The notes under the pieces are model-generated. The model saw only the letters and a list, made by a program, of their open reading frames with translations. It did not search any database and was not told the DNA's origin. A stretch of 64,000 nucleotides of DNA from positions 15,124 through 79,123 of the IMG/VR virus record IMGVR_UViG_3300021964_010186; one strand, 5' to 3'. This DNA is from a virus. The position numbers and the translations under genes are program-made. Shown piece after piece: positions 9,336-29,489 of the stretch; positions within the stretch are counted from its first letter, which is position 1; every line of letters starts with the position of its first letter.

Positions 9336-9651
9336 CACTTGGGTACAGTTGACGAAGGAATTCGTCAAGGAATGGCCGGAGGTACTGGAGGGCTTACACT
9401 TCCAGAACATGCCGGTCAAGTACCTGATGTACGTGAACATCATACTCAAGAACAACATCACCATACACTACGACATAGCCAACGAGCTGAAATCAAAGAA
9501 ACAGGCCACTATAGCCCGATTCCTCAAGGAGACCATAGAGACGCATTACATGAAAATCAAGACAGTGGATCTTAAGTTTGACATACCCGCACTGAAACGC
9601 GACATGGAGTCACGTACTTCGTTACTGATGGCTAAAACTTTCAAAAAGTAA
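9307..9651 (+). CDS. hypothetical protein
   Basis: 114 aa; WPEVL...PVKYL; last + strand gene, overlapping the convergent gene by 30 nt. Confidence 0.7.
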   Translation: MPKRQPPKNSTWVQLTKEFVKEWPEVLEGLHFQNMPVKYLMYVNIILKNNITIHYDIANELKSKKQATIARFLKETIETHYMKIKTVDLKFDIPALKRDMESRTSLLMAKTFKK

Positions 9652-12872: not shown

Positions 12873-13797
12873 AGTAACTTTCAAGTCCCTGTCTCAATGA
12901 AAACTGTGGTTGATAATCTAGGAGATCCTTGGCCCTAGTTATGTCTAGTGTGCCCCTCATTGGATAAAGTTTCTGCATTCCGATGTCCTTGATCTCAGAG
13001 TTACTGCCCGTGATGTCGATTATCGTCTCGGCGAGTGTCCTCAAACTGGTCGCGTTGCCCGCCGTTATGTTGAAACTGGTGTTTGCCACCTCAGAATTGG
13101 CCGCTTTGATTATGCCGTAGGCGGCATCCTGCCTGTAAGTGAAATCAACCTTGTTTTCACCGTTGTGTAAGGTTATCTGTTCGCCCTTCATCGCCTTCGC
13201 GAAAAACTTGGAAACAACCCTGTCTGGTAGATCTCCCGGACCATACACTCCACTGGGCCTCACTATCACGTAATTCAACCCATCCCTCTGTGCGAACAAC
13301 TTGGTCATCCTCTCTCCCGTCAGTTTGGCCTCACCATAGATGTTCGTGGGCTTGGTTGTGGAATCCTCCCGTGTACCATCCTTAAAATCTCCATACACCA
13401 TGCTACTGCTGATGTAAACAAATTTTTTTGTTCCAAATTTAGATGCGTGCCAGAGTAGATTGGTCGTTGTGTCTATCACCTTTGGGATACCCAGCATCGG
13501 ATTCTCGTCGACTATTTTTGCCCTCGGGTAAGTAGCAAGGTGTATCACTATGTCGGGTTTTGATCTGAATGCTCTCAGACAGATGTCTTTTTCTAGTATG
13601 TCTCCTTTTATTATGCTTACCTTTCCATTGTCCCAATTCCTGGTCCTCCAGGCTATCAATTTATTCAGGTCTATCGTCGAAATGATATCATACGTGTCTA
13701 TGTTGTCAACACATATGACATTGTGTCCGTCATTAGTTAATTTTTCAATTATTTTACTTCCTATGAATCCTAACCCACCTGTTATTAAATATTTCAT
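12838..13797 (-). CDS. NAD-dependent NDP-sugar epimerase/dehydratase
   Basis: ITGGLGFIG, YISSSMVYG, YGEAK (YxxxK), RPSGVYGPG; ATG 13797. Confidence 0.92.
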   Translation of the reverse strand: MKYLITGGLGFIGSKIIEKLTNDGHNVICVDNIDTYDIISTIDLNKLIAWRTRNWDNGKVSIIKGDILEKDICLRAFRSKPDIVIHLATYPRAKIVDENPMLGIPKVIDTTTNLLWHASKFGTKKFVYISSSMVYGDFKDGTREDSTTKPTNIYGEAKLTGERMTKLFAQRDGLNYVIVRPSGVYGPGDLPDRVVSKFFAKAMKGEQITLHNGENKVDFTYRQDAAYGIIKAANSEVANTSFNITAGNATSLRTLAETIIDITGSNSEIKDIGMQKLYPMRGTLDITRAKDLLDYQPQFSLRQGLESYYDWIRQYTGKI

Positions 13798-13946
13798 CAA
13801 AATTCCTTCTTTATTCCCACTGTTGGATTTTCAATACAACTGTCTTTGATCTCTTTCATAGTCTCCTTGTTGAGATCCACATTACAGCTCGCATTGGGTT
13901 TGATCCCGCAACCTACCATCAATAATAACACAATTAGGTATCTCAT
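13797..13946 (-). CDS. small predicted lipoprotein, 49 aa (not in ORF track)
   Basis: MRYLIVLLLMVGCGIKPNASCNVDLNKETMKEIKDSCIENPTVGIKKEF*; lipobox-like MVG-C; overlaps both neighbours. Confidence 0.7.
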   Translation of the reverse strand: MRYLIVLLLMVGCGIKPNASCNVDLNKETMKEIKDSCIENPTVGIKKEF

Positions 13947-15415
13947 CCTAGTACTTTGACTCCATAACGGTTGGTAAATGCTCGACCATCCTCCCTGTCA
14001 TTGACTATAGGTTGACCTTTAATGTTTAGACTGGTGTTTAGGAGTATGGGGCAACCCGTCTGTTTTTTCCATTCTGTGAGCAGTGCGTGGAACCCTGGAT
14101 TGTCCGTCTTACGCACCGTTTGAACCCTACTTGTAGAATCATGGTGTATGATAGCAGGAAACTCTTTACCATGCGTACACGCCGCTGTAAATTGCATATA
14201 AGGGGTGTTTTTGACTGCTTTAGGCAGGGTGAAATACTGGTCTACATCCTCCTCTAGTATGGCTGGTGCAAACGGTCTGAACTGCTGTCTCTTCTTGATG
14301 CTGTTTACCAAATCCTTGATGTCATCACCCCTTGGATCTGCTAGTAATGATCTATTACCAAGCGCCCTTGGTCCGAACTCCGCCCTACCACTGGCCACTC
14401 CCACCATCCGGTTTTCCTTTAGTTCCTTGATCAGTGCGTCCACAGGATACTCTCCATCTATGTTGTGTCCCAGGAATGGGTGTTGCCAGTTCAGTCTCTT
14501 CTGCTCATGCGCGGCTATACAGCCCAGGCTCGATCCCGCGTCTCCAGGGTTGGGTATGATCCAGATGCTGTCGAACAGTCCCATGTCGGCCAGCACACGA
14601 TTGGCGGCGCAGTTGAGCGCGACCCCGCCAGCGTACACCAGGTTCCTACTACCGTACTTGGATGCCCTAGACCACAGGTCCGCGAGGCACTCCTCCGTGA
14701 CTGCCTGTATCGAGGCCGCGATGTCCATGACATCTGCGTTTGGTTCCCAATCGCTCAATCCACGGTGTAGGTTCTGTTTGAGTTTGAAGGGGGATTGATG
14801 CACGAAGTCGTCGTAGATCTGTTGCTTGTACTTGGGCGTTCCATACGCGGCCATGCCCATCAGAATGTATTCTTCCTCCGCTGGCTTTAACCCACAACGA
14901 TGTGTGAACGCGGAATACAGTATGCCTATGCTGTGTGGATACCTTATGGTCTCTTTCCTGTGTATCCAACATTTGTCGCCCACTGATATCGAAACCGTGT
15001 CCCACTCACCTATGGCGTCCACCGTCAGTATGGTGGCACCCTCGTCCACGAACGGAGACGTGAAGTAGCCCGCCGCCGCGTGTGAGTCGTGGTGCTTTAC
15101 GTACTCGTCTATCTTTATACCGAAGTGGTCCAAGTGCCACTGTGGCATCTCGGTGTAGCTCAGCGCCAGCCCGTACTGTCCAGCGTAGAACTGTCGGGTC
15201 TTCTTGAGCAGTGGCTTCTCGTAGTACACCACCTTGTCGAAGGGACCAAAGGTGTAGGCCTCGTCCACTATCCGCTGGTTGAGGTAGTGATCGTTCTTGA
15301 CCTTGCTGTAACGCTCCGCGTGTGCGGCCCACAGGATCTCACCTATGCCCGAGCCGTAGTCCACCACCGCCATGGCGGCATCGTGATTCATGCAGTTGAT
15401 CCCTAGTATCCTCAT
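13943..15415 (-). CDS. carbamoyltransferase (NodU/CmcH/TobZ family)
   Basis: HDAAMA, HHDSHAAAGY, DAIGE, GGVALNC, PGDAGSSLG, EFGPRALGNRS, RPFAP, LLNTSLN. Confidence 0.95.
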   Translation of the reverse strand: MRILGINCMNHDAAMAVVDYGSGIGEILWAAHAERYSKVKNDHYLNQRIVDEAYTFGPFDKVVYYEKPLLKKTRQFYAGQYGLALSYTEMPQWHLDHFGIKIDEYVKHHDSHAAAGYFTSPFVDEGATILTVDAIGEWDTVSISVGDKCWIHRKETIRYPHSIGILYSAFTHRCGLKPAEEEYILMGMAAYGTPKYKQQIYDDFVHQSPFKLKQNLHRGLSDWEPNADVMDIAASIQAVTEECLADLWSRASKYGSRNLVYAGGVALNCAANRVLADMGLFDSIWIIPNPGDAGSSLGCIAAHEQKRLNWQHPFLGHNIDGEYPVDALIKELKENRMVGVASGRAEFGPRALGNRSLLADPRGDDIKDLVNSIKKRQQFRPFAPAILEEDVDQYFTLPKAVKNTPYMQFTAACTHGKEFPAIIHHDSTSRVQTVRKTDNPGFHALLTEWKKQTGCPILLNTSLNIKGQPIVNDREDGRAFTNRYGVKVLG

Positions 15416-15825
15416 TTCCTATCTCTTATATCTTGCATTATTAGAAAGGCCCACATGTCTGCTTCTTTGTGTGTGACTCTAAAATCGTATTTTTTAGGTT
15501 CCTCGAACATCTTGTTTGTATCATCGAACCTTCCTTCTTTGATCGTGTCCATCCATACAGTGTAGTCTGCCTTGAACTGTGATCTGGTCTCTTCCGTTGG
15601 GCACACGAAATCCGCCACCACGTTCCTTCCCCTGTCTACCGCTTCTTCTGCCATGGTCCACATACGCAGTGATTGTCTACGCCTGCCTTTATCTGAGAAG
15701 TCCCAGTCATCACACTGCTTCCTCACCTCGTCAGCGTTCAACCAGACCGCATTCATCCTCTGTGAGATTATCCTCGCCAGCGTGGTCTTTCCAGAACCCG
15801 GTAGTCCCATTATCAGTATCTTCAT
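15412..15825 (-). CDS. cysC: adenylylsulfate (APS) kinase-like P-loop kinase
   Basis: Start moved to MKILIMGLPGSGKTT (15825, ATGA overlap); NADEVR, DWDFS..GR.RQ, DFVCP, FEEP. Confidence 0.8.
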   Translation of the reverse strand: MKILIMGLPGSGKTTLARIISQRMNAVWLNADEVRKQCDDWDFSDKGRRRQSLRMWTMAEEAVDRGRNVVADFVCPTEETRSQFKADYTVWMDTIKEGRFDDTNKMFEEPKKYDFRVTHKEADMWAFLIMQDIRDRK

Positions 15826-16385
15826 GCCATCCTCAAAAATTTCTTGGTCCTGTTCAGGTACTCCCGCCACTGTTCCAGCGTGATGTCGTATTCGAAGTTC
15901 TGTGTGGTCTCATTCCGTCTCAGCAGTTTGGCACCGTTCTTGACGTGGAACCGTTCCGCCATCTCCGTGAGTGGAGATAGTGTCACCAACCTGTCTATGT
16001 GGTGTTCACCCCTGTATTTCTTGTACACCTCGTTCAGTATGTGCTTGCCACCGCCCCGCTTACGTGCCCACACCGTGTAGGCCACCGCTATCCTGCCCAC
16101 TATACTTGCCCTGTGGATCGCTTGGTTTGTGGCGTCCTGGCTCATGAGATCCATCTCCTCCACGGAGCGTGGCACCTCGTTGGTGAAGGCCAAACATATG
16201 ATCGCGGCCGTGTCGCCCTCCTCATCCTTGAGTCCCAGCATCTTCCTGCCATGCGACCTACGGAACTCCACGGTGAGTTCGGGTCTAACCGGATCTTCTG
16301 AAACGTCTATATCATTCAACTCAACGAGATCAAATCGTGGATCTCGCTTGAACAGATCTTTGATTTTCTGTTTTATCTTTTCCAT
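15822..16385 (-). CDS. conserved phage protein, possible GNAT-like/acyl-CoA-binding fold
   Basis: DPVRP, AVAYTVW...GGG..I and VTLSP blocks, reminiscent of the malonyl-CoA decarboxylase/GNAT fold. Confidence 0.5.
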   Translation of the reverse strand: MEKIKQKIKDLFKRDPRFDLVELNDIDVSEDPVRPELTVEFRRSHGRKMLGLKDEEGDTAAIICLAFTNEVPRSVEEMDLMSQDATNQAIHRASIVGRIAVAYTVWARKRGGGKHILNEVYKKYRGEHHIDRLVTLSPLTEMAERFHVKNGAKLLRRNETTQNFEYDITLEQWREYLNRTKKFLRMA

Positions 16386-16388
16386 CTA

Positions 16389-16493
16389 TTACTTGTATAT
16401 GAACGGGTCCTTCTTCTTGAGTTCCTTCAGTCTCTTCCTGTACTGTATCTCTTCTCTGATCTTGTACCAGAGACGTTTTATCCATCTTATCAT
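16389..16493 (-). CDS. 34-aa basic peptide (not in ORF track)
   Basis: MIRWIKRLWYKIREEIQYRKRLKELKKKDPFIYK*; AGGAGAG SD upstream; fills the gap in the operon. Confidence 0.7.
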   Translation of the reverse strand: MIRWIKRLWYKIREEIQYRKRLKELKKKDPFIYK

Positions 16494-16503
16494 TTTTTCT
16501 CTC

Positions 16504-17289
16504 CTATATCAGTTTATTAAAGGTTGGTAACATCAATTGTACAGCATCCGCATGCGCTTGGTCAAGTGGATGTGTGGTGCCACGCGGGTAATCATTGAGC
16601 AGTGCCCATTGGTTAAAACCCATACAACGTTCGCCGAAGAAGAACCACTTGGAGAGATCCATCTCCGAGTGCAGGGCATTCATGAAAGGATCCTTATTTT
16701 TGTGGTGGGTGAATTCTTGGTAAAAAAGACTGTTGTCCGCTAAGGTGAACATGTATGGAATATTCTTCTTCTCCAAGATGTTCTGCAACCACGTGATGCT
16801 CTTCCAACTGAGGTATATCTCGTGGTATTGGCTGGCCGCGTATTTGTATATGGCCTCCGCAAAGTCTCGTACACCGGTTTCTTTAAAGAGTTCTTTCCTC
16901 ACACGCCATTGCTCTTGCTGTGTCTCCGATCCCTGCATGGTCCTCAATGCCTCCTCGTTGCCGGCATTGGTGTCCCATGGGGAGATGGATGCCCATCGGG
17001 TATCTTCCAGCACCTTGTGTCTGGGCATGGCCCAGTCATACCTGGAGAGGAGACTCCACATAACCACCACGCATTCCACATCGGTGTTGTTGGCCACCGC
17101 GTTGAACACACGCCTCGCTATGGCTTGATTGCCCAGACCTCCAAACGCCGTGCACAGGTATTCGTGTCCTGATTCACTGGAAAGTCCGTGCGCCCAGGTC
17201 TTCTTGGATGGTGTCTTTCCATCCACATCGTCGCTCAGCTCGTTGCCAAGTGTGAAACTGCATCCGCCCGCTATCAATTTCTTAGTCAT
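16504..17289 (-). CDS. SGNH/GDSL-fold hydrolase or acyltransferase-like protein
   Basis: GGCSFT nucleophile block, GGLGNQAI oxyanion block, C-terminal THP..AH. Confidence 0.6.
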   Translation of the reverse strand: MTKKLIAGGCSFTLGNELSDDVDGKTPSKKTWAHGLSSESGHEYLCTAFGGLGNQAIARRVFNAVANNTDVECVVVMWSLLSRYDWAMPRHKVLEDTRWASISPWDTNAGNEEALRTMQGSETQQEQWRVRKELFKETGVRDFAEAIYKYAASQYHEIYLSWKSITWLQNILEKKNIPYMFTLADNSLFYQEFTHHKNKDPFMNALHSEMDLSKWFFFGERCMGFNQWALLNDYPRGTTHPLDQAHADAVQLMLPTFNKLI

Positions 17290-18448
17290 ATATCCTCAAT
17301 ACTTTATTTAAAAGAGGGAACACCTCACCAAAATTTTCCTTGCGGTACTGATCGGTCTGCAGGATCCTGGCCTTGCGTCGTTCTCGCATCTCGGCGGTGT
17401 CCCTGTCCGCGGCGTTCATGAACCTCAGCGTGGGCTGGAAGTCGGTCAGCATACTGTACCTGGAGTTGATGATGTTCTTGGCCTGCCGGGGCAGTGTCTG
17501 TACGTTGAAGTAGTCGGGGTCGAAGCAGGTGTTCACATAGAAGAACTTGGGCTGGAACTGTGCCACCCACAGGGCTATCTTGGCCCAGTTGAAGACATTG
17601 AATATGGAAACTGTTGTGCAGATCTGGAAGTCCATGTTGGGGGTCCGTCTCTCCTTGAATTTGATCAGATTGGCATTGACTTGGCGCCAGTTGGCCGGGT
17701 GCCTCTGATACTCGAATGGCTCGCCCACGTCATCGATGCTGAACGCTATCTCCACGTGCTTGAAGTAACTCCATAGGTCAAATATCTCTATGGGAGGCAG
17801 TTGCGTGCCGTTGGTGTTGTAGTGTATGTCTATGTTCTTTGCATAGCCCTTCTCCACACAGTGCATTAATATCTTGAAATGGTCTTTTATCATGAACGGT
17901 TCGCCGCCTGTGAACTCGAAGTATTGCACGTGTTTTAGGTCTTCCTTGAGGTCCTCGAAGAACTTGGGATTGCGTTTCGGCCAGCCACCCTCACGTAAAT
18001 TTTTAAGTGCGACTGGATTCTCTCCGTAGTCCAGTTCTTCCTGTGCCCACTTGCTGGAACTCCAGGAACCGCATATCCTACACTTGAGATTACACACGTT
18101 GCCCAACTTAAAGTCTATGAACTTCAGCGTTGGCTCGCTATCAGGTGTCCAATCCGTAAGACTTTTCTTCATTTTGTAAATCGAGTTCTGTCGCTTGGAA
18201 GTCTTGCCCGCATCTTCTTCCTGCCAACAGCTCTGGCAACCTTTTGGTCTTTCACCATTACGGAACTGTTCTCTCAGTTTCTCCATGTATTCTGTGTGCT
18301 GTATGGATTTAAGACTCTGGTTGTATACTTTCACCTCGGGCACACTTCCTTTATATAGACAGCAGGGTGATGCACCACCGTTCACATCAACTTCTAGATG
18401 TGTCCATGGCAAAGGACACATGTTTGATTTTATATACTTGTCCACCAC
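17282..18448 (-). CDS. radical SAM protein with N-terminal twitch-like domain
   Basis: CPLPWTH...PCC...GCQSCW, then CNLKCRIC, GGEPF, YNTNGT, SIDD. Confidence 0.9.
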   Translation of the reverse strand: MVDKYIKSNMCPLPWTHLEVDVNGGASPCCLYKGSVPEVKVYNQSLKSIQHTEYMEKLREQFRNGERPKGCQSCWQEEDAGKTSKRQNSIYKMKKSLTDWTPDSEPTLKFIDFKLGNVCNLKCRICGSWSSSKWAQEELDYGENPVALKNLREGGWPKRNPKFFEDLKEDLKHVQYFEFTGGEPFMIKDHFKILMHCVEKGYAKNIDIHYNTNGTQLPPIEIFDLWSYFKHVEIAFSIDDVGEPFEYQRHPANWRQVNANLIKFKERRTPNMDFQICTTVSIFNVFNWAKIALWVAQFQPKFFYVNTCFDPDYFNVQTLPRQAKNIINSRYSMLTDFQPTLRFMNAADRDTAEMRERRKARILQTDQYRKENFGEVFPLLNKVLRIYD

Positions 18449-19764
18449 TCTAATGCTTTCTTGTTTTTTGCTAAGATTTTTTTGATATCTGTGCCACGGA
18501 TACTATCTAGTCTCTCTATTTCCGCTTTGCCATCCTTCTGACCTTTTCTGTACAACTCTTCATCGTAAACTAACTCGTTGTTCCTTTTTTGTTTCTGCAT
18601 TTCGTCTAACTGCGAAAAGAAATTGTTTAATTTTTTGTTTTTGTATTTGATTGTCTTTTCTCTAACATCATCTATTATCTCAGTCATAATGTCATAAGGC
18701 ATGAACAAAGGTGCCATAGCATTGTTATGGGAGAAGTTAAAAACTTGTTTAGTCAACAACTCGATGTTCAGCTCATTACTTAACAGCACCATATTTTCCA
18801 AATCAAACAATCCCGGTAATGTAATAGTTAGGTCCAACTGCAGTCTTTGATTTTGCTCTTTTACGAATTTTAGTCCATACTTTATATTTGTTAACCATTC
18901 ATCATACTTTAGACCAGTTCTTATGTACTCCCCAATTTCCCCGGTACCATCTATTGAAGCACAAATTTGCCAATTAGGAAAGTACCTTAATATGTCGTCA
19001 AACAAGTTGTATTTGTAGAAATTTATCCTACTCATATTAGAATTGTACCTTGCTAATACTTTATCTTGGTAGCCAAGTTCTACAATCCTTTTCATCGCTT
19101 CCCAGTGTATCTTCCACATCAGAGGTTCTCCCCCACACCAGTATAGTTCGGTTATACGTTTTTGTTCAACCGCTTCTGTGAATTCCTTCACTACTTGCTG
19201 ATCATGGAATAGTTCTAACTGTGCTTTGATGTCTTTCCTGCCCCATATCCTATATCGTTCGTAATCGCCCTTACCGTGTTTCTTATTCTCAGTTTCCCAT
19301 GTACTACTCAGCATATCTCCACACATCCTACAACTAAAATTGCACAGATTAGAAAACCTATAATCAAAACTTTGTGTCTTCATTGTGGTGGCACCTGTTT
19401 CATCTGTGCTGTTGTACGCTTGTTCTATGTTGTTCCTATACAACCAATTAAAGTGTTGTCTGTACACCTGTTCATTTAACAATTTGTGATTGCACACAGT
19501 ACACTGAGGGATTTCCTCACCTGCTAATAACTTTAACCGCACAGACTTCATATAGTCAGAATTCCAGTGCTGTTCTAATGTGGTTAGATTCAATTTGTCA
19601 TTATTACCTTTTGGGTCTATAGTGTCTATGTACTGTTTGAAGTTTTCGCTTGATTCTCTAGAACTACAACACAACCTTCGTTCCATCTGTGGCGACAGGT
19701 AAGTGTGCGTCCATGGTGCCATGCAGAATGTCTTGTTGCCCTCGTTAGGTTTAATTCTTTTCAT
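18430..19764 (-). CDS. radical SAM protein with N-terminal twitch-like domain
   Basis: FCMAPWTH...LCC...QCTVC, then CNFSCRMC, GGEPL, SIDG, EYIRTG; AT-rich. Confidence 0.9.
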   Translation of the reverse strand: MKRIKPNEGNKTFCMAPWTHTYLSPQMERRLCCSSRESSENFKQYIDTIDPKGNNDKLNLTTLEQHWNSDYMKSVRLKLLAGEEIPQCTVCNHKLLNEQVYRQHFNWLYRNNIEQAYNSTDETGATTMKTQSFDYRFSNLCNFSCRMCGDMLSSTWETENKKHGKGDYERYRIWGRKDIKAQLELFHDQQVVKEFTEAVEQKRITELYWCGGEPLMWKIHWEAMKRIVELGYQDKVLARYNSNMSRINFYKYNLFDDILRYFPNWQICASIDGTGEIGEYIRTGLKYDEWLTNIKYGLKFVKEQNQRLQLDLTITLPGLFDLENMVLLSNELNIELLTKQVFNFSHNNAMAPLFMPYDIMTEIIDDVREKTIKYKNKKLNNFFSQLDEMQKQKRNNELVYDEELYRKGQKDGKAEIERLDSIRGTDIKKILAKNKKALEWWTSI

Positions 19765-21034
19765 ACAACTCCTGTAATTCAGGAAACACCGTGAGCATGT
19801 CTTCGTCTCTAATCAAGTCTAATTTTTTCATTATGTCTTTGAACTGTCCTAAATCCTTGCTGTTGTTCCTCCTCATCATGTAATCCAGACCTGATTCATA
19901 ACCTTTTGTGGCCCTGGTCAGATGATCTAACGGTTTTAACCATTCAAGATGTTTCTCATATTTTTCTTTTACTTTCTGTTTGTATGATTCCGGCAATAGA
20001 TCGATCCTCTGCGGGTATGGAAACTGTAACAGATTGAAATTGAAGTCCTGTGGTTTCAGTAATCCTTGATCTACCCAGTTCCTGTGGAAGTCTGGTATGT
20101 GTAGCGCATTAATCAAACCCACCGTTGAACTGATATAGAAATCCACTTGCGGACAAACCTGTAACATGCGTCGCCTATTAGCCACAACTTCTTCCCATAC
20201 GGTACCTTTACGCATAAGTTCACCTCGCTTACCTTCCGCATCGAGACTGGCGCCTATTGAAACCGAATCAAATTTGTTCCAAAGTTCGAGTATGTCTATG
20301 TCTTTAAATCTCGTCTTGGTGAAATTGGTATTATATATCAATCTGACATGATACATCTTTCGCCTGTCTAATTCCTTCAATATCCTGTAGTGCTCTTCCA
20401 TTATAATGGGCTCCCCACCTGCGAAATAGAACTGTTCCACATGATCGAACTGATCCAACATCTGTGTCCATATGTCATCACTGCTTCTACCTACACGCAT
20501 GACCTTTGCGTGATTAGGTGGTAATCCTGTAAGTTTCTTGTGATCCTCATACCAATTGGAACTGAACCAAGTGCCACAACTCCGGCAGGCCAGATTACAC
20601 AGGTTGCTGAACCTTATGTCCCAATACTTGATCACAAAGTCAGCCGTGCCATCTGGCTGAGTATTATCTACCATTCCTATGTTGTGTCCAAAATGTTTGT
20701 TTGAACTCAATCTCAAACTGAAGAATCCTGATTGTTCCTGATCATAGCATTTGGTACATTGTTTGCTGGTTTTGTTTGCCAACATATTGTTTCTGATACC
20801 TTTCATTGTATCGTTATTGAACACTTCCACCATGGAATTCTTGTTCAGATCGCCGACTGGATACTTGTCTAAAGCAAAGCAACAAGGATAGGCCCTACCA
20901 TCGGGGAAAGCATGTATATGCAACCATGGCATCATACAGAAGGTATCACTGTCTATAAGCAATTCTTTTTGCCTATCTGTCATGTCCTTGATCTTTAGTT
21001 TCTCGGGTTCTTTAGCTCCGTAATCATATGTCAC
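19751..21034 (-). CDS. radical SAM protein with N-terminal twitch-like domain
   Basis: FCMMPWLH...PCC...QCTKCY, then CNLACRSC, GGEPI, YNTNF, SLDA. Confidence 0.9.
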   Translation of the reverse strand: MTYDYGAKEPEKLKIKDMTDRQKELLIDSDTFCMMPWLHIHAFPDGRAYPCCFALDKYPVGDLNKNSMVEVFNNDTMKGIRNNMLANKTSKQCTKCYDQEQSGFFSLRLSSNKHFGHNIGMVDNTQPDGTADFVIKYWDIRFSNLCNLACRSCGTWFSSNWYEDHKKLTGLPPNHAKVMRVGRSSDDIWTQMLDQFDHVEQFYFAGGEPIIMEEHYRILKELDRRKMYHVRLIYNTNFTKTRFKDIDILELWNKFDSVSIGASLDAEGKRGELMRKGTVWEEVVANRRRMLQVCPQVDFYISSTVGLINALHIPDFHRNWVDQGLLKPQDFNFNLLQFPYPQRIDLLPESYKQKVKEKYEKHLEWLKPLDHLTRATKGYESGLDYMMRRNNSKDLGQFKDIMKKLDLIRDEDMLTVFPELQELYEKN

Positions 21035-22367
21035 GATACCATTCTCCTATAATCGGAAAGGTCTTCTCAAAATCCTTTCCACTGCGTTTGTCATACTGAC
21101 TGTAGAATGCTTTGAAATCTTGTTGTAGTTTGTCCTGTGTGGCCGCACCCACATGTGGTGTTTTCACCACGTCCAAGTAATCGATTAATCTCTGTGTATG
21201 ATCTATTTCCATGGGGTGTAACCATTTCTCATTACTAGTTAAGAACTTTTCTAATCCTCCTTTAAATTTGTTCCTTAGTTCATCTGGTAGCACTAGTGGT
21301 GATTGGAAACTTGGAAATCTCAATATGTTCAAAGTGAAGTTGATCGACGGTCCATACACCTTGCCTGCATTTTTCAACCAGACTATCTTTTCGAGAAATT
21401 CTGGCAGTGATTCTAAACACAACGCATTGATGGTCGACATATTGTGTATCTCTGACGGTATCTTATCCACCATCATGTGTAAAACACGACTGAACCAGTC
21501 ACCGTAGTCGAGACCGTCCCTTATGTATTCCGCTTGAGAGAATGTTGCTTCACAACTTGTGTACAGATGAAAGTTTTTGAATCCTTTTAATTTACGTTTG
21601 AACCTATCAATTATACTATCCTTGGCTCCGAGGTTTGAATTAATTGCTATATTCATATTCGGATTCATTTTATCACCTTGTGTTTCTATCCAGTCCAATA
21701 ACCTCCATAGGTTTGGAGACATCATTGGTTCTCCTCCCGTGATTCTCAATTCATTTAGTGTCTTATGCAAATCAGATTCCCACCATCTGTAAAATGCTTC
21801 CACGTAGGGATTGGTTTCATCTTTCTTGTAGGGCTCTGCACTGTTGTGTGGATGAGTAAAATGATTTCGGCCATCGGATTTCAATCCAGTGTATGGCCCT
21901 TTTTGCTTGATGTTATTTGCCCAGGTTGAACTAAACGCAGGATTACAATATGTACAAGCAAAATTACACGTTCTATCAAATGCTATCTCCAGTGTTTTTA
22001 AATTCACATCTTCGTTGTGATCTAATTTGTAAGCCGTGTCTAGCTCGTTGTTAGTGAATATCTTTGATTTGTACACCCTGTCACTGATATTATCCCTGTG
22101 TATGTCCTCAATCTTCCAACAATATTCACAGCCTGCCGGTCTTTCACCATTCTGCATTTGCCTACGTTGTTCTTTCTTCTGTGGTGTGTTGTGCAGAAGT
22201 TTTGGATTGGACTGAACGGCAATAGGATCAACCTTGTGTGGCAACGGATGGTGACAGCTCGTGGTCATCCCCGAGCCCAACCATATTGTGGCGTTGTACC
22301 ACTTGGCCCCACAGAAACTTGCTGACTTTGTATCTAATATCTTTTTCTTATATTCGAGATCGTCCAT
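21024..22367 (-). CDS. radical SAM protein with N-terminal twitch-like domain (CxAKW subtype)
   Basis: FCGAKW...SCHHP...GCEYCW, then CNFACTYC, TGGEP, AEYIRDG. Confidence 0.9.
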   Translation of the reverse strand: MDDLEYKKKILDTKSASFCGAKWYNATIWLGSGMTTSCHHPLPHKVDPIAVQSNPKLLHNTPQKKEQRRQMQNGERPAGCEYCWKIEDIHRDNISDRVYKSKIFTNNELDTAYKLDHNEDVNLKTLEIAFDRTCNFACTYCNPAFSSTWANNIKQKGPYTGLKSDGRNHFTHPHNSAEPYKKDETNPYVEAFYRWWESDLHKTLNELRITGGEPMMSPNLWRLLDWIETQGDKMNPNMNIAINSNLGAKDSIIDRFKRKLKGFKNFHLYTSCEATFSQAEYIRDGLDYGDWFSRVLHMMVDKIPSEIHNMSTINALCLESLPEFLEKIVWLKNAGKVYGPSINFTLNILRFPSFQSPLVLPDELRNKFKGGLEKFLTSNEKWLHPMEIDHTQRLIDYLDVVKTPHVGAATQDKLQQDFKAFYSQYDKRSGKDFEKTFPIIGEWYRDI

Positions 22368-22482
22368 CTTTCCCCTTGAAATAATCTTTCAGTTTATTGT
22401 ATTCGTGTTCCGGACAGAGCGTGTCACTCTCGAACATCACGTCCTTGACCCAGTGATAATGTGCTATCGTCTTCTTGCTCAT
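22348..22482 (-). CDS. 44-aa peptide
   Basis: MSKKTIAHYHWVKDVMFESDTLCPEHEYNKLKDYFKGKDGRSRI*; ATGA overlap with upstream stop; overlaps start of the rSAM gene. Confidence 0.6.
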   Translation of the reverse strand: MSKKTIAHYHWVKDVMFESDTLCPEHEYNKLKDYFKGKDGRSRI

Positions 22483-23093
22483 GAATTCATCCTTTGGTAT
22501 ACCTTTTCTGCCCATTGTTGATTTTGTTCTACGGTCATGTGATTGATTGTGCCAATACCCCAACCGTCCTTGACGATTGCCCCCTTGCTGAATGCAAATA
22601 TACTTTCGTCTATGACCGTGCCCGTCTCTAATTTGATACCGGCATCCTTGCCCGCCGTTTCAAAAGGTCGGAAACTCCACATCTGCACGATGGTTTTATC
22701 TTCGAGCGTTGATAACACGTTCTGATCATAATACTTCAATGCGTATTCGTAGGCCAACTCGTCTTTGTCATAATCGTGTAGATGTATCCAGTACTGTTCC
22801 AATGCCTTGTAAAGGTTTGGATCAACACCATCCAACGGTTGTGTGTTCGCACTTAAGGTGTATCTTGGGTGGTAAAGCCTGTATGGCTCAGTCCAACAGA
22901 ATATCGAAACATCTGGGACGCTGTCCTGTTCTATTAGTCTGTTGAAACGCATAAACACACTCCAGATACTGCGTCCAGGTTCACCAAACCATCTTATCCT
23001 AGAACACCCTAGTTTCTCCTGTAGGATGTTGCACCAGCTCTCGGGTTGATTGCTGGCACAGAAACTGTCTCCAAAAAATCCTATTGTCCTCAT
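22479..23093 (-). CDS. SGNH/GDSL-fold protein
   Basis: GFFGDSFC, GEPGRS, C-terminal NHM...N..WA. Confidence 0.6.
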   Translation of the reverse strand: MRTIGFFGDSFCASNQPESWCNILQEKLGCSRIRWFGEPGRSIWSVFMRFNRLIEQDSVPDVSIFCWTEPYRLYHPRYTLSANTQPLDGVDPNLYKALEQYWIHLHDYDKDELAYEYALKYYDQNVLSTLEDKTIVQMWSFRPFETAGKDAGIKLETGTVIDESIFAFSKGAIVKDGWGIGTINHMTVEQNQQWAEKVYQRMNS

Positions 23094-24073
23094 TGTGTAA
23101 ACCTAAACAAGTCAACTTTCTTGCTCCCTTTTGTTTTGATTAGGAATTCCCTGTTCCAGTCAGTTCTTTCGAAATGTTGTTTGTTGTGCTCTAACACATC
23201 ATTCAATCGTGCATAGACGGACTTAGGATCCTGTACACTGAGTTGATGCATAGAATCAAATACCATGTTGAATCTCTTATCCCTTTCCTTTTCGTTGTCA
23301 TAACTTTCATCTATGACAGAGGAAAATGTTTTAAAGCCCAAATTACGTAATGCCCGAAGTTGTCCTTGAGATCCAAAAACAACAAAGGGACGTTTAGCCA
23401 CAATCGGTTTAGCGGTCTTTTCCGTGAAAACGCCAAAGTCTTTATGCCACGTTGTTTCTATGAATGCAGTATAGAAGGTGTTGTTGTAGATTTCAGGATC
23501 TATAAGATCACTGTATCTTAATGTGCTCTTCCATTTTTCTTCTATGGTTTCCGCCGTGTGATTCACAGGCACTTTCACATGTTTACTCCATCTGCCTTGT
23601 CTTGGATCGTCCCTGTAGTATGTCGTTAACACTTGTTCATTCACAGGATGACCCTTTAGTGTATCAAACAAAATGTCCTTGCCGGTATCTGTGCCACCCA
23701 TTAAAAAATCAAATTTCTTTAGTTTGTTGGATTTATCTTTGACGTCAATACAGTTTTCAAGCAATCCTCTACACATGTCGTTCTTGATGTAAAGGTCCTG
23801 TCCCTCATGAAACATGTTATTAAGAAATTTCAATGGTAGTCCTTGTTGATTGGCAAAATTACAACCGTAATAGTGAATGTTTGATTTATGGATGTTTGCT
23901 TTTATTAAATCCACAAATGTCCTGTGCACGCCATCCTCTTCATACACGAAACCCGGCTCATACAGATTCACAATTATGTTAGCGTAATTTCTATGTTCTT
24001 GATCAATCAATTTTTGAAGTCTTTCACCCATGTCCGCTCCACTGGTGTATATGTTAATCAGTAAAGTGCTCAT
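23090..24073 (-). CDS. putative GT-B glycosyltransferase (GT10-like TEK motif)
   Basis: IETT...VFTEKTAKPI..KRPFVVFG...L..LGFKTF...IDESYD; AT-rich. Confidence 0.5.
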   Translation of the reverse strand: MSTLLINIYTSGADMGERLQKLIDQEHRNYANIIVNLYEPGFVYEEDGVHRTFVDLIKANIHKSNIHYYGCNFANQQGLPLKFLNNMFHEGQDLYIKNDMCRGLLENCIDVKDKSNKLKKFDFLMGGTDTGKDILFDTLKGHPVNEQVLTTYYRDDPRQGRWSKHVKVPVNHTAETIEEKWKSTLRYSDLIDPEIYNNTFYTAFIETTWHKDFGVFTEKTAKPIVAKRPFVVFGSQGQLRALRNLGFKTFSSVIDESYDNEKERDKRFNMVFDSMHQLSVQDPKSVYARLNDVLEHNKQHFERTDWNREFLIKTKGSKKVDLFRFTQ

Positions 24074-25440
24074 GCGTTCCTACACTCCTCCCAGAATTCC
24101 GCCATCTCAGGGAACGTGTTGAGGAACCTGGTCAGGCGCCTGCGATCGTGTTCCGAGAAAAAAGCGTAAAAATTACGTTTGTGCTGTGCGCTCGCGTCAG
24201 CGTTCTCGCGCCAGTATGCGAGATTGCGTCGCATCTTCTGGATCTCGAAGTCCTTGAATATGTGTAGCCCGTTTGACTCGCCGGAGTTGGCCTCCATGTA
24301 CTTGATGTTGTCTTCGTGTATGCTCTGGTAACTCTCGGGTAATAATGTTATCTGTTGCCATGCGGGTTGGCGTAGCAGTGGCACGTCAAACCAAACACGC
24401 TGATAAGTTTTACTGTATCGCTTACGCAGATCCAGTATCTTTTCCAACAATCGGTCCATGCTGGTTATACTGAGGTTGTTGTAGGTCACTATGAAGGTTA
24501 TGCTGTTACGCACTGGTATGCGATCCAGGAACTCCTCCACGTTCGCCATCATGCGATCGAAGTCCAATCCATGCCTGATGTACTCGGCGCGTTTGCCGAA
24601 CGCATCCACGCTGACGAACTGCATCATGTGTTCCACCTTCTCCTCCATGCAGATATTCTGCATCATGTTGAAGTACTTGTCCTTGAGTTTTGGGTCGGCC
24701 GGACACATGTTGGATGTTACGTTGAGATGTAGGTCCTCTTTGGGATGGTCAATGATGTACTGTAGCACCCGGTAGGTGTTGACATCCATCATGGGCTCCC
24801 CACCGGTCATGCGGAAGTGCTTGAGGTTCTTGTACAGTTCTGGCCACCATCGCCAGAAAGCGTCAACGTATGGGTTGGACTCCCTGTTGGGTATTGGACT
24901 CCTGCGTCCCTGGAAGTGCTCGGGAGCGTTGTGCGGTGGCGTGGTGGGGTACTCCCCATAGCGTTCCGTCTCCTTGCCCCAGGTGGTGGAGAACTGTGGC
25001 GAACAGTAACTACACTTGAAGTTACAAGCGTGGCTGAAGTTGACCTCCACGTACCTGGGCATCCATGTCTCAGACAATGGATTCTTTACAATTTCTTCAA
25101 AGTCCTGCATGGCCCATGGCTCTCCCGAACGGTAGTGACGATCACTCATCTCACCGGCGTCCTCCAGTTTCCAGCAGTAACTACAGCCCGCGGGCCTCTC
25201 ACCCGCCAGCATCTGTCGTCTTTGCTTCAACTTCTCGTTGGTGTTGTGAAGTGCCGTGGGATTGCTATGTAGTTTTGTCGCGTCAATCTCGTGCAGGGGT
25301 GGATGGTAGCAACTGTTGGTCAGTCCCGTTGGCAGGTGCAGTGACACCTGGTTCCACTTGGCCAGGCACATGGTGGGCGAAACTGTGGCCAGTTTCTGCT
25401 CGGCCTTCAGCGCATCATTCTTGTAGTCACTTGTACTCAC
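24070..25440 (-). CDS. radical SAM protein with N-terminal twitch-like domain (CxAKW subtype)
   Basis: MCLAKW...SCYHP...GCSYCW, then CNFKCSYC, TGGEP, AEYIRHG; clear paralogue of 21024..22367. Confidence 0.9.
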   Translation of the reverse strand: MSTSDYKNDALKAEQKLATVSPTMCLAKWNQVSLHLPTGLTNSCYHPPLHEIDATKLHSNPTALHNTNEKLKQRRQMLAGERPAGCSYCWKLEDAGEMSDRHYRSGEPWAMQDFEEIVKNPLSETWMPRYVEVNFSHACNFKCSYCSPQFSTTWGKETERYGEYPTTPPHNAPEHFQGRRSPIPNRESNPYVDAFWRWWPELYKNLKHFRMTGGEPMMDVNTYRVLQYIIDHPKEDLHLNVTSNMCPADPKLKDKYFNMMQNICMEEKVEHMMQFVSVDAFGKRAEYIRHGLDFDRMMANVEEFLDRIPVRNSITFIVTYNNLSITSMDRLLEKILDLRKRYSKTYQRVWFDVPLLRQPAWQQITLLPESYQSIHEDNIKYMEANSGESNGLHIFKDFEIQKMRRNLAYWRENADASAQHKRNFYAFFSEHDRRRLTRFLNTFPEMAEFWEECRNA

Positions 25441-26326
25441 GATCCTGCACTCCTTTATTACTGTGTTGTGGCATGACGAACTTGAAGAACCTGCTGTCTT
25501 CCACGCTGTAATCTGCCACTGGTATGTCTAATCTCTGCCTAATGCTTTCCCCATAAGTGTTGAGGTCTGCGTGTACATTCTGTTCATCCAGGTAGTTTGC
25601 AAACACCTCGTGCATACGATCTATGTCACTGATGCCCATTGCCCATTCGTGGCTCTCTACCGAGGTCTGGTAACACCCTATCCTGGCTCCCAACATAGCC
25701 CATAGTCCATTATCCACATCCGCGCCCACTGTCATCCACGTGGTCAGTATCCTCAGGTTCTGTGGCCAGATGTTTTTGAATTCGCGTGGAGGTATCGGCA
25801 CTCCCTTGTTGGTGCACATCTTGACGCCCTCCCTGTAGCCCGCAGTGAATGCCTGGTATTTGTCACCGTTGATTACAGTGGTGCTGTAGCAGTTGTGTAG
25901 GTTCTCGTGTGGTACGCCCCAACAGAAATCCAGTTTGTTTTCCTCGCTGTCAGCGTTCTCGTGTGTCTTCATAGCAAGGCAGGTCTCCTTGTGCCAGCCC
26001 ACCAGTCCACCATTACCGTACACCAGTCCGTTGATGTTGTTCTTGGCCCTCCACCTGTGCACTGCCTTGGGATCGGTCTTTGACCAGTCCAGGGTCTGTA
26101 TTAGGAAGCTCTCATCTATTATGTTGTCACCGTCCACGCTGATGAAGAAATCGGTCTCCGCCAGTTCCGCCGCGGCCTTGTGTGCGGAATCGAAACCCAC
26201 CACACCATCCACACGCTTGGCCCATGGCACTTTGTTCTTGAGGTCAGCCCAGTTCTGCTCCTTGTTGGGTTCACGGAAACTGATGTACACGAAATCCAGG
26301 TCGCTTACTCTGACTCTATCTGCCAT
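25427..26326 (-). CDS. GT-A fold glycosyltransferase-like protein
   Basis: FISFREPN, AKRVDGVVG.DSAHKAAA, SVDGDN (DxD), INGLVYGNGG, AGYREGVKM. Confidence 0.7.
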   Translation of the reverse strand: MADRVRVSDLDFVYISFREPNKEQNWADLKNKVPWAKRVDGVVGFDSAHKAAAELAETDFFISVDGDNIIDESFLIQTLDWSKTDPKAVHRWRAKNNINGLVYGNGGLVGWHKETCLAMKTHENADSEENKLDFCWGVPHENLHNCYSTTVINGDKYQAFTAGYREGVKMCTNKGVPIPPREFKNIWPQNLRILTTWMTVGADVDNGLWAMLGARIGCYQTSVESHEWAMGISDIDRMHEVFANYLDEQNVHADLNTYGESIRQRLDIPVADYSVEDSRFFKFVMPQHSNKGVQDREYK

Positions 26327-26610
26327 GCCTCTCCTCCCTGCATTATTCCGTTGGGCCAGTGTATGTCGCCGTGCTCGAAACTGTAGCCCTTTTCCGCCTT
26401 TACAAGAACACTGAATCGTGTTTTAGGCTTTGGTGGTGGTCTCAGTTCGAACCGAGTGGGTGACACCCAGTGGTAAGACTGCTCACCTTTTCTCATAATT
26501 TCTTTCTTTTTATCTAGACTGACCACAACCTCCCTTCCTTCTATACAGACAGTATGCTGTTTCTCAACCACAGGCGGCATAGACTGCAGAGCCTTAAGAA
26601 GTTCTGACAT
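26305..26610 (-). CDS. hypothetical protein
   Basis: Start moved to MSELLK (ATG 26610, AAGGAG SD). Confidence 0.65.
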   Translation of the reverse strand: MSELLKALQSMPPVVEKQHTVCIEGREVVVSLDKKKEIMRKGEQSYHWVSPTRFELRPPPKPKTRFSVLVKAEKGYSFEHGDIHWPNGIMQGGEAWQIESE

Positions 26611-27388
26611 AAATCTCCTTGTCGTGATAGTGCCATGGCCTGTTGATCCTTCTCTCACCGAGATAGATCGCATCGCCGTTCTGGTTGGGATAGAGGTAGT
26701 TGTTGTGATCACCCACCCTGTCGAGACGGTTGACGGCGGGCTTATGGTGTAGGAACTTGAACCACTCGTAGTCGATCAGGTGCTTGTTGGTGGGGTCCAT
26801 CATCCTATAGGCCAGTGCGAACACCACGTCAGTGCTGGGATAATCATCATGACAGTTTATCAGCATCGTTGTCTTGACCTCTCGCCAGTTCATCGTGATG
26901 TGCCTGGCCGTGTCAAAAAACTTTTGTGCGGTTTTGCTTTTCCTGAAGTACATCAGTCCGTTGTATATGTTGGGTAGGCAATTCCTCACGAACAGTGCCC
27001 TGTAGGGAGTGTGTTTGACTATTTCATCCTTGTAGTTCCTACAGTCAACGCTGAACACCATGTCGTGTTGCCACAGGTGATGCCACCACCAATCGGTGTT
27101 GTCAGTCCATAACACATCGGCCTCTAACTTGATCGTGTGGGTGAAAGGTGTCATGTGGAACGCCTTGTGTTCGTTGGCCCACTTGATCTCGTGTTCTGAG
27201 CTGTCATCCTGTTTTAACACTTTCACGATATCCACCGCGGGGTGTTCAAACCTGCTGTTCTCATCCGTGACCACACAAATTTGATTTTCTCTGTTATATC
27301 TCTTGATACTTTCTGCGAGTTTTATGCTTAACCCAACGTAATCTGTCTTGCTGTTGTTCTGTGCGAACCATAGGAATCCCTTAGACAT
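26594..27388 (-). CDS. GT8-like nucleotide-diphospho-sugar transferase
   Basis: KGFLWFAQN, TPFTHTIKLEAD (DxD-like), PNIYNGLMYF, STDVVFALA, HHK; start MSKG at 27388. Confidence 0.6.
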   Translation of the reverse strand: MSKGFLWFAQNNSKTDYVGLSIKLAESIKRYNRENQICVVTDENSRFEHPAVDIVKVLKQDDSSEHEIKWANEHKAFHMTPFTHTIKLEADVLWTDNTDWWWHHLWQHDMVFSVDCRNYKDEIVKHTPYRALFVRNCLPNIYNGLMYFRKSKTAQKFFDTARHITMNWREVKTTMLINCHDDYPSTDVVFALAYRMMDPTNKHLIDYEWFKFLHHKPAVNRLDRVGDHNNYLYPNQNGDAIYLGERRINRPWHYHDKEIYVRTS

Positions 27389-28130
27389 CGGCCAACTCCT
27401 TGTTGAGCACATGCACGTCTTGGTGTTCAGTGTAGTTGATCTGGTCGTTGCACTGCCAGGCGATGCCGGTGTCGGTAATTTTGATAACCTTGCACCCGGG
27501 TGGCAGGGTGGCTATACTCAAGGGCATGGTGTCGTACGTGATGAATCCGTTGGCCTGCTGTAGTGCTATAGCGAAAGCGTAATCGTTCCTGAAGTTCCTG
27601 GCGCGTATCCTGTACATCTCGTTGAAGTAATGGTAATATTGCTTGATGTACTTCACCGTGTCAAAAATGCGTTTAGCCTTTAGACCTTTCTTGAAGACGA
27701 ACACAGTGGCCCACACCATGTCTATCATGCTCCACTTCCGCATGTCAAAACTGCCAACGTTGGTGAGGTCATGTGCGTCCTTGGAAACAAGGAAGTCATA
27801 ATCAGTGTCCAGGAACTGCCTGAGGTTGTCAGTGAAAGGGAAGTAGTCGATGTCCATCACCAGCGTGACCTCATAGGGTGACAGTTCATAGGCCATGTGC
27901 CTGTCCACGTTGCGCCATTCAGATCCGTTCTTTGTGTTCCCCAGCTCGGGTTCGATGAACTTGTAGTTGATGAACCCCAGGGGTTTTAATTTTTTAAACG
28001 TGTCGTAGTCCGTGACCACCGTGATTTCCAGTTGTAGATTCCGTTTGATGAGTGCGACACAACGCTCCAGTATCCTGTGATATTGGACTTCTGTCGTGTC
28101 AAAACAAAATAATAGTACTCCCTTGGTCAT
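27381..28130 (-). CDS. GT8-like nucleotide-diphospho-sugar transferase
   Basis: KGVLLF, SPYEVTLVMDIDY (DxD), WATVFVF, FRNDYAFAIA, HVLNK; paralogous to the adjacent gene. Confidence 0.62.
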   Translation of the reverse strand: MTKGVLLFCFDTTEVQYHRILERCVALIKRNLQLEITVVTDYDTFKKLKPLGFINYKFIEPELGNTKNGSEWRNVDRHMAYELSPYEVTLVMDIDYFPFTDNLRQFLDTDYDFLVSKDAHDLTNVGSFDMRKWSMIDMVWATVFVFKKGLKAKRIFDTVKYIKQYYHYFNEMYRIRARNFRNDYAFAIALQQANGFITYDTMPLSIATLPPGCKVIKITDTGIAWQCNDQINYTEHQDVHVLNKELADV

Positions 28131-28447
28131 CAGTCACCCCTTTTTTCAAATGTCTTTGACATCTGATGGTACGAACTAATGGCCTCCTGGTTTCTTTCTA
28201 TCAATGTTTGTAGGAATCCTAAGGGATCCGTGATCTCCACGGGATTTTGATTTGTGTCCAAAACAAAAAACTTGTCTGCGGTTTCCTTCAGTGTCCTCAC
28301 CAGACAGATGGTCTCAGCGTCCGCACGGAAGATGTGTTCATTGTACACCACCACCATTCGTGAGTGTGCCTTCTCCAAGGCGTTGCGCTTGGCAACCGCT
28401 ATGTCATAGGATAAGTCTGATTGTTTTTTTAGTTCGCCAATGTCCAT
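28130..28447 (-). CDS. hypothetical protein, first gene of the glycan/rSAM operon
   Basis: Start moved to MDIGEL (28447), 6 nt downstream of a TATAAT box. Confidence 0.7.
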   Translation of the reverse strand: MDIGELKKQSDLSYDIAVAKRNALEKAHSRMVVVYNEHIFRADAETICLVRTLKETADKFFVLDTNQNPVEITDPLGFLQTLIERNQEAISSYHQMSKTFEKRGD

Positions 28448-28453
28448 ACCACA

Positions 28454-28482
28454 ATTATACAATAATTATGGTGTGTGATCAA
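28454..28482 (-). promoter_or_regulatory. sigma70-type promoter of the glycan/rSAM operon
   Basis: On - strand TTGATC (28482-28477), 17 nt spacer, TATAAT (28459-28454), then 6 nt to ATG. Confidence 0.7.
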
Positions 28483-28498
28483 CCTGGTAAAAAAATTA

Positions 28499-29485: not shown

Positions 29486-29489
29486 AAAT

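Follow-up and report, generated by a model that had tools for sequence, protein, structure and literature searches.

A baseplate-linked array of radical SAM proteins with an N-terminal twitch domain in a predicted jumbo phage, and its possible role in glycan tailoring

We have analyzed a window of 64,000 nucleotides (positions 15124-79123 of the 79-kb IMG/VR record IMGVR_UViG_3300021964_010186) that contains six genes for radical S-adenosylmethionine (SAM) proteins, all matching the NCBIfam model NF033640 (N_Twi_rSAM, twitch domain-containing radical SAM protein). Five of them lie at 17282-25440, where a reading of the same DNA made without database searches (here, the sequence-only reading) had placed five paralogous open reading frames, and we confirmed these coordinates, all on the minus strand. 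The sixth, rF, was located by a scan of the whole record with the NF033640 model. The six genes are as follows.

rA, 17282-18448, minus strand: N_Twi radical SAM protein of 388 amino acids, PW subtype, with twitch cysteines C11, C29, C30, C71, and C74 and CX3CX2C at residues 119-126

rB, 18430-19764, minus strand: N_Twi radical SAM protein of 444 amino acids, PW subtype, a long-branch paralogue with alleles swapped among relatives

rC, 19751-21034, minus strand: N_Twi radical SAM protein of 427 amino acids, PW subtype, the top NF033640 scorer in the window

rD, 21024-22367, minus strand: N_Twi radical SAM protein of 447 amino acids, AKW subtype

rE, 24070-25440, minus strand: N_Twi radical SAM protein of 456 amino acids, AKW subtype, the copy retained in the minimal module of Ralstonia phage RsoM2USA

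rF, 3725-4849, plus strand: sixth N_Twi radical SAM protein, of a divergent third type, with C6, C23, C59, and C62 and CX3CX2C at residues 102-109

The reading frames of rA to rD overlap by 11 to 19 bases, and two small genes, u204 and u327, are found between rD and rE. All six proteins exceed the curated NF033640 cutoff of 170 bits (rA 373, rB 307, rC 412, rD 290, rE 328, and rF 225), with model positions from about 1 to 398 covered in each, and the N-terminal-twitch family without known function that the sequence-only reading had suggested is therefore this one. The cysteine cluster described there ahead of the core was found in all six, as C...C...CxxC before CX3CX2C, with a similar spacing in rF. 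The Pfam SPASM model matches rA at residues 11-75 and rC at residues 33-97, in both cases before Radical_SAM, and the invariant columns of the six-paralogue alignment include CX3CX2C and the GGE SAM-binding motif. SPASM and twitch domains are defined as C-terminal extensions (PMC9012708). Kinship with a housekeeping enzyme such as MoaA, QueE, or NrdG, which the sequence-only reading had put forward as the contrary case, does not appear in the hidden Markov model scan: the models for MoaA, QueE, NrdG, and viperin gave 16 to 38 bits overall against cutoffs of 131 to 441 bits (best score versus cutoff, MoaA 29 versus 284, QueE 19 versus 260, NrdG 25 versus 131, and prokaryotic viperin 30 versus 180), and NirJ and several peptide-maturase models, run on the array proteins, were all far under their cutoffs. 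Judged by profile, the proteins belong to the catalogued family NF033640 and are neither canonical C-terminal SPASM/twitch proteins nor housekeeping radical SAM enzymes.

(The motifs that define the two subtypes are those given by the sequence-only reading, namely, CxxPWxH...CC...CxxC in rA, rB, and rC and CxAKW...SCxHP...CxYCW in rD and rE.) Both subtypes turned out to be genuine clades of the whole family. None of the best 150 matches combines the PW and AKW N-terminal motifs within a single domain, and in a maximum-likelihood tree of 98 single-domain sequences, a sample biased by having been collected with a profile built from the six window proteins, the PW clade has an SH-aLRT support of 96 and the AKW clade one of 99. 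The rD-like and rE-like sequences form separate AKW subclades (support for the former, 98), rA and rB have long branches within the PW clade, and the branch leading to rF is long as well. A profile-profile alignment of the two subtypes indicates full-length homology (probability 100%, E value of 5e-56, 21% identity) and puts the SC of the AKW type under the CC of the PW type.

The N-terminal domain is related to a known twitch. Positions 10-92 of the PW-type profile align to residues 161-246 of BtrN, its C-terminal twitch domain (PDB 4m7s/4m7t), with an E value of 2e-6. On the BtrN chain, the first PW cysteine corresponds to position 169, the cysteine after the proline to 187, and the CxxC pair to 232 and 235; BtrN 161-246 contains only four cysteines, and all four are matched. 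The auxiliary [4Fe-4S] cluster of BtrN has four cysteine ligands and is a proposed electron acceptor (PMC9012708). The spacing of the twitch cysteines in our proteins is C-x17/18-C-x35-55-CxxC, with the second ligand of the AKW type perhaps shifted by one residue toward the C terminus (x18 versus x17). Each subtype appears to offer four cysteines for one auxiliary cluster, and the predicted number of ligands is the same in both. As both keep four twitch cysteines with a BtrN-like spacing, the loss of a ligand as the difference between subtypes is unsupported, as is the suggestion that they ligate the auxiliary cluster differently. The PW subtype does have a fifth invariant twitch cysteine (CC versus the SC of AKW), which in rC is C51 or C52.

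We followed these residues through the orthologues of the five arrayed genes (74 to 119 unique sequences per gene, 38 to 93% identity). The twitch and CX3CX2C cysteines are kept in 100% of the orthologues of rA (76/76), rB (74/74), rC, and rE and in 104 to 105 of the 105 orthologues of rD, with CX3CX2C present in every one, and most cysteines outside these two motifs vary. This near invariance against a background of variable cysteines leads us to predict two clusters per enzyme, for which it is strong indirect evidence.

Pairwise identity among the six paralogues of the window is only 20 to 28%, and each is kept among relatives as an orthologue of its own. The paralogues are thus ancient and separately conserved, which fits non-redundant roles; the divergence claimed by the sequence-only reading holds, and the different roles that it attached to it are a plausible consequence. 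That the copies for the most part duplicate one another, or are in decay, and have no separate roles is very improbable. The number of radical SAM genes among relatives does range from 2 to 7 or more, but the low identity, the separate clade of each paralogue, and the retention of the cluster cysteines in each intact orthologue speak against it.

A profile search of 1.84 billion representatives returned at least 6,735 clusters (50% identity) at an E value of 1e-30 or lower. In many of the representatives, two or three members of the family are fused to each other, and a search for longer homologues gave mainly double radical SAM proteins and no further informative fusion. When other bacterial genomes were sampled, only 4 out of 400 from Bacteroidota and 2 out of 400 from Pseudomonadota had the family, a rarity that argues against chance as the source of six copies in 64 kb. 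Tandem multiplicity is a trait of the family, since paired bacterial copies stand side by side: the matches that are two distinct genes adjoin each other (genomes G083, G155, G287, and G506), and in two further genomes (G310 and G577) both matches fall within one reading frame. Among cultured phages, tblastn found the family in three only, RsoM2USA and Vibrio phages K566 and K567, and none of 50,697 phage records matched the array by megablast.

The source is predicted to be a fragment of a jumbo phage with a genome of roughly 350 kb, because the completeness of the record is 22% (CheckV) and its baseplate hub is nearest to those of PA5oct-like and Rak2-like jumbo phages. A T4-like cyanomyovirus was also considered and was rejected on the affinity of the hub and the implied genome size. 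Near-identical DNA was found in estuary and marine metagenome runs, with no RNA among the runs listed, and metagenomes contain very large numbers of orthologues with an identity of about 80% or higher. The 'moraphage' paper (PMC12619734) makes no mention of radical SAM, PA5oct, or RsoM2USA and offers no link to this lineage, and the radical SAM protein mentioned in the paper on cyanophage S-SCSM2R is an unrelated one. The genes around the array are the following.

u110, s328, and s542, 28130-31118, minus strand: virion structural block (tail-pin/baseplate-wedge-like and fiber-like), which always precedes the module

u249, 27381-28130, minus strand: paralogue of u272 and glycosyltransferase family 8 (GT8)-like candidate, with a weak DUF5672 match

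u272, 26594-27412, minus strand: candidate GT-A glycosyltransferase, GT8-like (glycogenin-like)

u299, 25427-26326, minus strand: conserved partner just upstream of rE

u327, 23090-24073, minus strand: variable insert, no family match

u204, 22479-23093, minus strand: small protein whose N terminus bears a GDSF motif; this insert, which separates rD from rE, is variable and found in some relatives only

Downstream operon, 9622-17289, minus strand: in map order, GFO/MocA oxidoreductase, DegT aminotransferase, u442 (11556-12884, minus strand), nucleoside diphosphate (NDP)-sugar epimerase/dehydratase, NodU/CmcH-type carbamoyltransferase, adenylylsulfate (APS)-kinase-like P-loop protein, u187, a 34-amino-acid peptide, and u261

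Basic micro-open reading frame of 34 amino acids, 16389-16493, minus strand: the peptide between u261 and u187

Region near rF, 4942-8143, plus strand: MoxR/CobS-like AAA ATPase, DUF2201 metallopeptidase-VWA protein, and a homolog of PsiE (phosphate-starvation-inducible)

Region at 490-2252: 6-phosphogluconate-dehydrogenase-like NAD-binding protein and 5'-3' exonuclease

The order of this module is deeply conserved. In a close set of 62 IMG/VR loci, in which rC is 51 to 93% identical, about 60 share the order s542, s328, u110, u249, u272, u299, rE, rD, rC, rB, rA in the direction of transcription, with a variable insert, u204 or a u261-like gene, between rE and rD. In most of these relatives rE abuts rD and the five radical SAM genes are contiguous; the window differs by having u204 and u327 between them. 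After rA comes u261, usually u187, sometimes the APS-kinase-like gene, the carbamoyltransferase, and then varying sugar-nucleotide genes. A distant set of 71 further loci (rE 42 to 59% identical, contigs of up to 457 kb, examined with 7-kb flanks) has u299 upstream of rE in 64 and u272 in company with rE in 62, and in most of them rD, rC, rA, and rB follow rE, often with extra copies. Overall, the succession of tail-pin protein, GT8-like pair, u299, rE, rD, rC, and rA/rB is seen in more than 120 IMG/VR contigs.

Cultured phages carry reduced versions. RsoM2USA (344 kb) has a minimal module composed of a tail-pin-like gene, u110, u249, u272, one small gene, u299, rE, and a u442-like gene, its RsoM2USA_349 protein being 34.7% identical to rE over 96% of the length, while the Vibrio phages K566 and K567 have four clustered family members. 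The 134 C-terminal amino acids of s542 are 47.5% identical to a virion structural protein of PA5oct annotated as baseplate wedge and tail pin, and the module was not found in the PA5oct genome. As PA5oct shares this structural domain and lacks the module, the latter is best described, from gene content, as an accessory appended to the baseplate/tail block. Module-bearing contigs (loci L001 to L006) were also seen binned in GTDB species representatives, metagenome-assembled genomes assigned to Betaproteobacteria, Verrucomicrobia, Rickettsiales, Flavobacterium, and Legionellales, and in one of the 'Legionellales' genomes the family was matched 13 times, over four contigs. Mis-binning of jumbo phage contigs is the probable cause, and we do not read these genomes as clues to the host.

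Two of the genes between the structural block and the array look like glycosyltransferases. A profile of u272 homologues matches glycogenin-1 (GT8, GT-A fold) with an E value of 3.9e-5 over the nucleotide-binding and DxD region, where u272 reads EAD and u249 DID. The gene next to them, u299, accompanies rE more constantly than any other gene, also in RsoM2USA, and there is a strong case for regarding its product as a candidate new enzyme fold or family. Its profile found no relative in the PDB, and an Atlas search with u299 and u442 returned only their own viral clusters and sub-threshold GT2 leads (0.86 to 0.87). The C-terminal half of u442 is paralogous to u299 (BLASTP E value of 2e-19), and the two have many invariant Gly, Asp, and His positions in common as well as a DGD motif. 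No Pfam, NCBIfam, or PHROG family reached its threshold with u442, u187, u261, u204, u327, u299, or u110, and there is no detectable relationship between u261 and u204. One to three diverged copies of u327 occur around rE in 37 of the 71 distant relatives; this protein, which has no recognizable domain, behaves like an accessory of the module that can move or expand.

Other members of the family have different surroundings. AKW-type relatives are fused to GT2 (P0272 and P0337) and GNAT (P0309) domains, and in some PW-type relatives the fusion partner consists of TPR or Sel1 repeats (P0245, P0263, and P0318). One Bacteroidota chromosome has four copies, with a GDSL-like protein, a fusion of a methyltransferase to GT2, and a GT-C protein on either side of them. 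Searches of five Bacteroidota genomes that carry the family with the u299 and u272 profiles found neither. Another Bacteroidota chromosome (locus L083, G083:C2, about 1.21 to 1.23 Mb) presents the same family in a different, oxygenase-rich setting, with two N_Twi radical SAM genes beside six PhyH-type iron/2-oxoglutarate dioxygenases and a WelO5-like halogenase, together with a methyltransferase, a reductive-dehalogenase-like Fe-S protein, a GDSL protein, and a secreted Peptidase_S74/T9SS protein.

Such chromosomal tailoring clusters with oxygenases and methyltransferases would suit a host-directed or small-molecule product in place of a virion decoration, for example, a host envelope glycan remodeled to exclude superinfection, a metabolite derived from a nucleotide, or a hypermodified DNA base. 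The weak, sub-threshold similarity to the cores of viperin, MoaA, and QueE is compatible with it, as is a QueE-like gene just upstream of the window, a weak match in the record scan. We consider this explanation distinctly unlikely, as the array runs in the same direction as the baseplate/tail block and is translationally coupled to it, the link to tail genes recurs throughout the contigs with the module, and the housekeeping and viperin models all stay far below their cutoffs.

Positions within the module are fixed, and alleles are not. Identity of rB to its counterparts in close relatives is multimodal (50 to 57%, 63 to 67%, and 75 to 90%) and uncorrelated with that of its neighbor rC (r = 0.17); rD is 50% identical in a locus where rC is 93% and rE 92% identical, and rA falls to 40 to 43% in four loci. 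The alleles of u272 and u249 switch together among relatives (r = 0.91). GC content at third codon positions is also a mosaic, being 0.40 to 0.50 in rB, rC, rD, u204, and u327 (18430-24073) and 0.64 to 0.70 in rA, rE, u299, u272, and u249, with low values also in rF and the GFO oxidoreductase (0.41 to 0.42); for the flanks of the block from rB to u327, the range is 0.62 to 0.70. Together, the compositional mosaic and the multimodal identities point to recent replacement of alleles or cassettes inside a positionally fixed array. By analogy with surface-polysaccharide loci, in which positions are likewise fixed and alleles exchanged, we may infer diversifying selection on the product.

The downstream operon, transcribed from u261 to the GFO oxidoreductase, has identities taken from Pfam and an order shared in the close lineage. 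Its 34-amino-acid peptide has a highly conserved tail, the last 17 residues (YRKRLKELKKKDPFIYK) being invariant or nearly so in 55 of the 62 close loci and nearly unchanged even where the identity of rC has fallen to about 51%. A second, diverged copy (KDPY.Y[KR]) is present in some loci. A DUF5989/SxtK-like identity was considered for the peptide and is unsupported, as the Pfam scan, the only one made for it, gave no match.

This peptide is one reason to ask whether the enzymes are protein or peptide maturases, which would introduce a cross-link, an epimerization, or an anSME-like oxidation into virion proteins or a small peptide, with no glycan involved. Structure prediction, which the sequence-only reading had proposed as a check, yielded confident AlphaFold2 models (rE, predicted local distance difference test [pLDDT] of 95.5 and predicted template modeling score [pTM] of 0.92; rC, pLDDT of 90.6 and pTM of 0.88) and no single nearest enzyme. 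The PDB holds no solved structure of the family, the best sequence matches there (E values of 1e-6 to 1e-8) covering the radical SAM core only, and Foldseek (E values of 5e-7 to 1e-4) and VIA-align gave only generic matches to the partial TIM-barrel core. The Z scores of the core were 14.0 for SkfB, 13.8 for BlsE, 13.2 for anSME, 13.2 for SuiB, 12.9 for MoaA, 12.5 for viperin, and 12.3 for DesII. Peptide maturases (SkfB, anSME, SuiB, and CteB) are thus among the top structural neighbors, but BlsE, MoaA, viperin, and DesII follow within less than 2 Z units. The tail-pin and fiber genes just upstream and the TPR/Sel1 fusions would also agree with a maturase; GT8-like genes, however, lie between the structural genes and the array in essentially all loci, and the family includes GT2 and GNAT fusions. 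Neither a RiPP recognition element (RRE) nor a PqqD-like domain was detected with Pfam/NCBIfam, the twitch beginning 6 to 33 residues from the N terminus, and when gene order changes (loci L005 and L064), the 34-amino-acid peptide stays with the carbamoyltransferase and APS-kinase-like genes and not with the radical SAM genes. A leaderless protein could still be a substrate. On balance, we regard maturation of a protein or peptide as unlikely.

The reading that we prefer, and to which we give about an even chance, is that this tail-linked late operon builds a glycan and that five non-redundant radical SAM enzymes edit it, the target being most likely the virion. The context of sugar genes, the GT2 and GNAT fusions, and the swapping of alleles together favor radical tailoring of a glycan. 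Several observations weigh against this. The Pfam models for GT8 (PF01501), GT2, and GDSL have no match in the 79-kb phage record, and the glycosyltransferase assignment of u272 comes from a single profile-to-PDB match. By sequence, no recognizable fold was found for u299, u327, u261, u187, and u110. The sugar-nucleotide and carbamoyltransferase genes are seen in few distant loci only, where the 7-kb flanks may end before reaching them, and the deeply conserved neighbors of the module are structural proteins. The near tie among structural neighbors means that the predicted fold does not separate peptide from sugar chemistry, and the TPR/Sel1 fusions hint at protein substrates. Finally, our full-text search of the literature found no paper on the N-terminal-twitch family and no reaction for NF033640.

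If a glycan is the substrate, the pathway could operate as follows. The six genes would encode active N_Twi_rSAM enzymes, each with a SAM-cleaving [4Fe-4S] cluster at CX3CX2C and one auxiliary [4Fe-4S] cluster in the circularly permuted N-terminal twitch, whose four ligands would be the cysteines equivalent to those of the BtrN twitch. Such a four-cysteine auxiliary site favors BtrN-like electron-acceptor chemistry over MoaA-like substrate binding, so the likeliest course would be that the 5'-deoxyadenosyl radical takes a hydrogen atom from the substrate and that the resulting substrate radical is oxidized via the auxiliary cluster or quenched, giving a two-electron oxidation or a cross-link. 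In radical SAM epimerases, a cysteine serves as hydrogen-atom donor, and the extra cysteine of the PW subtype is a candidate for this function, with an epimerase-like outcome. The glycan would be assembled by the GT8-like transferases and, in this lineage, also by NDP-aminosugar enzymes and the O-carbamoyltransferase. With the operon starting behind the baseplate/tail-pin genes, the five arrayed enzymes would perform separate tailoring steps, and gene-by-gene exchange of alleles among relatives would diversify the product.

A bolder version, which we put forward only tentatively, is that a very large uncultured clade of jumbo phages uses an ordered set of at least five permuted-twitch radical SAM enzymes to oxidize C-H bonds of a virion glycan, to epimerize it via the extra cysteine, or to cross-link it (C-C/C-O), with swapped radical SAM and GT8-like alleles producing surface 'serotypes.' If the glycan reading is true, it would amount to new radical carbohydrate chemistry and a new route of phage surface diversification, to the first function for NF033640, and to the first viral glycan edited by radical SAM enzymes. 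The phage locus is in any case the clearest functional context so far for this family, and the cultured carriers RsoM2USA and K566/K567 make the question testable at the bench.

Compared with known systems, the proteins are most similar to NF033640 itself, which all six match end to end and with which they share the N-terminal twitch, CX3CX2C, GGEP, and a helical C-terminal tail. The architecture is identical; what the window adds is a five-gene core behind baseplate genes, two subtypes plus a third type, and the swapping of alleles. The next likeness is to BtrN, the 2-deoxy-scyllo-inosamine dehydrogenase of butirosin biosynthesis, which acts on an aminocyclitol. From the homologous twitch and its four aligned cysteines, a fully cysteine-ligated auxiliary cluster would be expected, and a carbohydrate-like class of substrate seems likely. 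The twitch of BtrN, however, is found at its C terminus, and the proteins of the window are circularly permuted, with the twitch at the N terminus; elsewhere only the generic radical SAM core is similar; our proteins are also about 130 to 200 residues longer, with a helical C-terminal region, and have the fifth cysteine in the PW subtype.

The SPASM/twitch maturases anSME, SkfB, CteB, and SuiB are the best neighbors of the core (Z scores of 12 to 14), and the anSME model matches the N-terminal domain. In those maturases, the SPASM domain is C-terminal and holds two auxiliary clusters, and an RRE is present at the N terminus of many, while the window proteins hold cysteines for one auxiliary cluster, at the N terminus; Pfam and NCBIfam detected no RRE, and no precursor gene tied to the radical SAM genes was found, the sole conserved micro-open reading frame tracking the carbamoyltransferase. 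Last, mycobacteriophage capsids and tail tubes are reported to be glycosylated by phage glycosyltransferases (work cited in PMC12619734 and PMC12801897), and the locus resembles such systems in that glycosyltransferase-like genes of the phage adjoin its structural genes, although glycosylation of the virion is here only a prediction. To our knowledge, the known systems for phage virion glycosylation contain no radical SAM enzymes, whereas the locus in the window is dominated by five to six of them.

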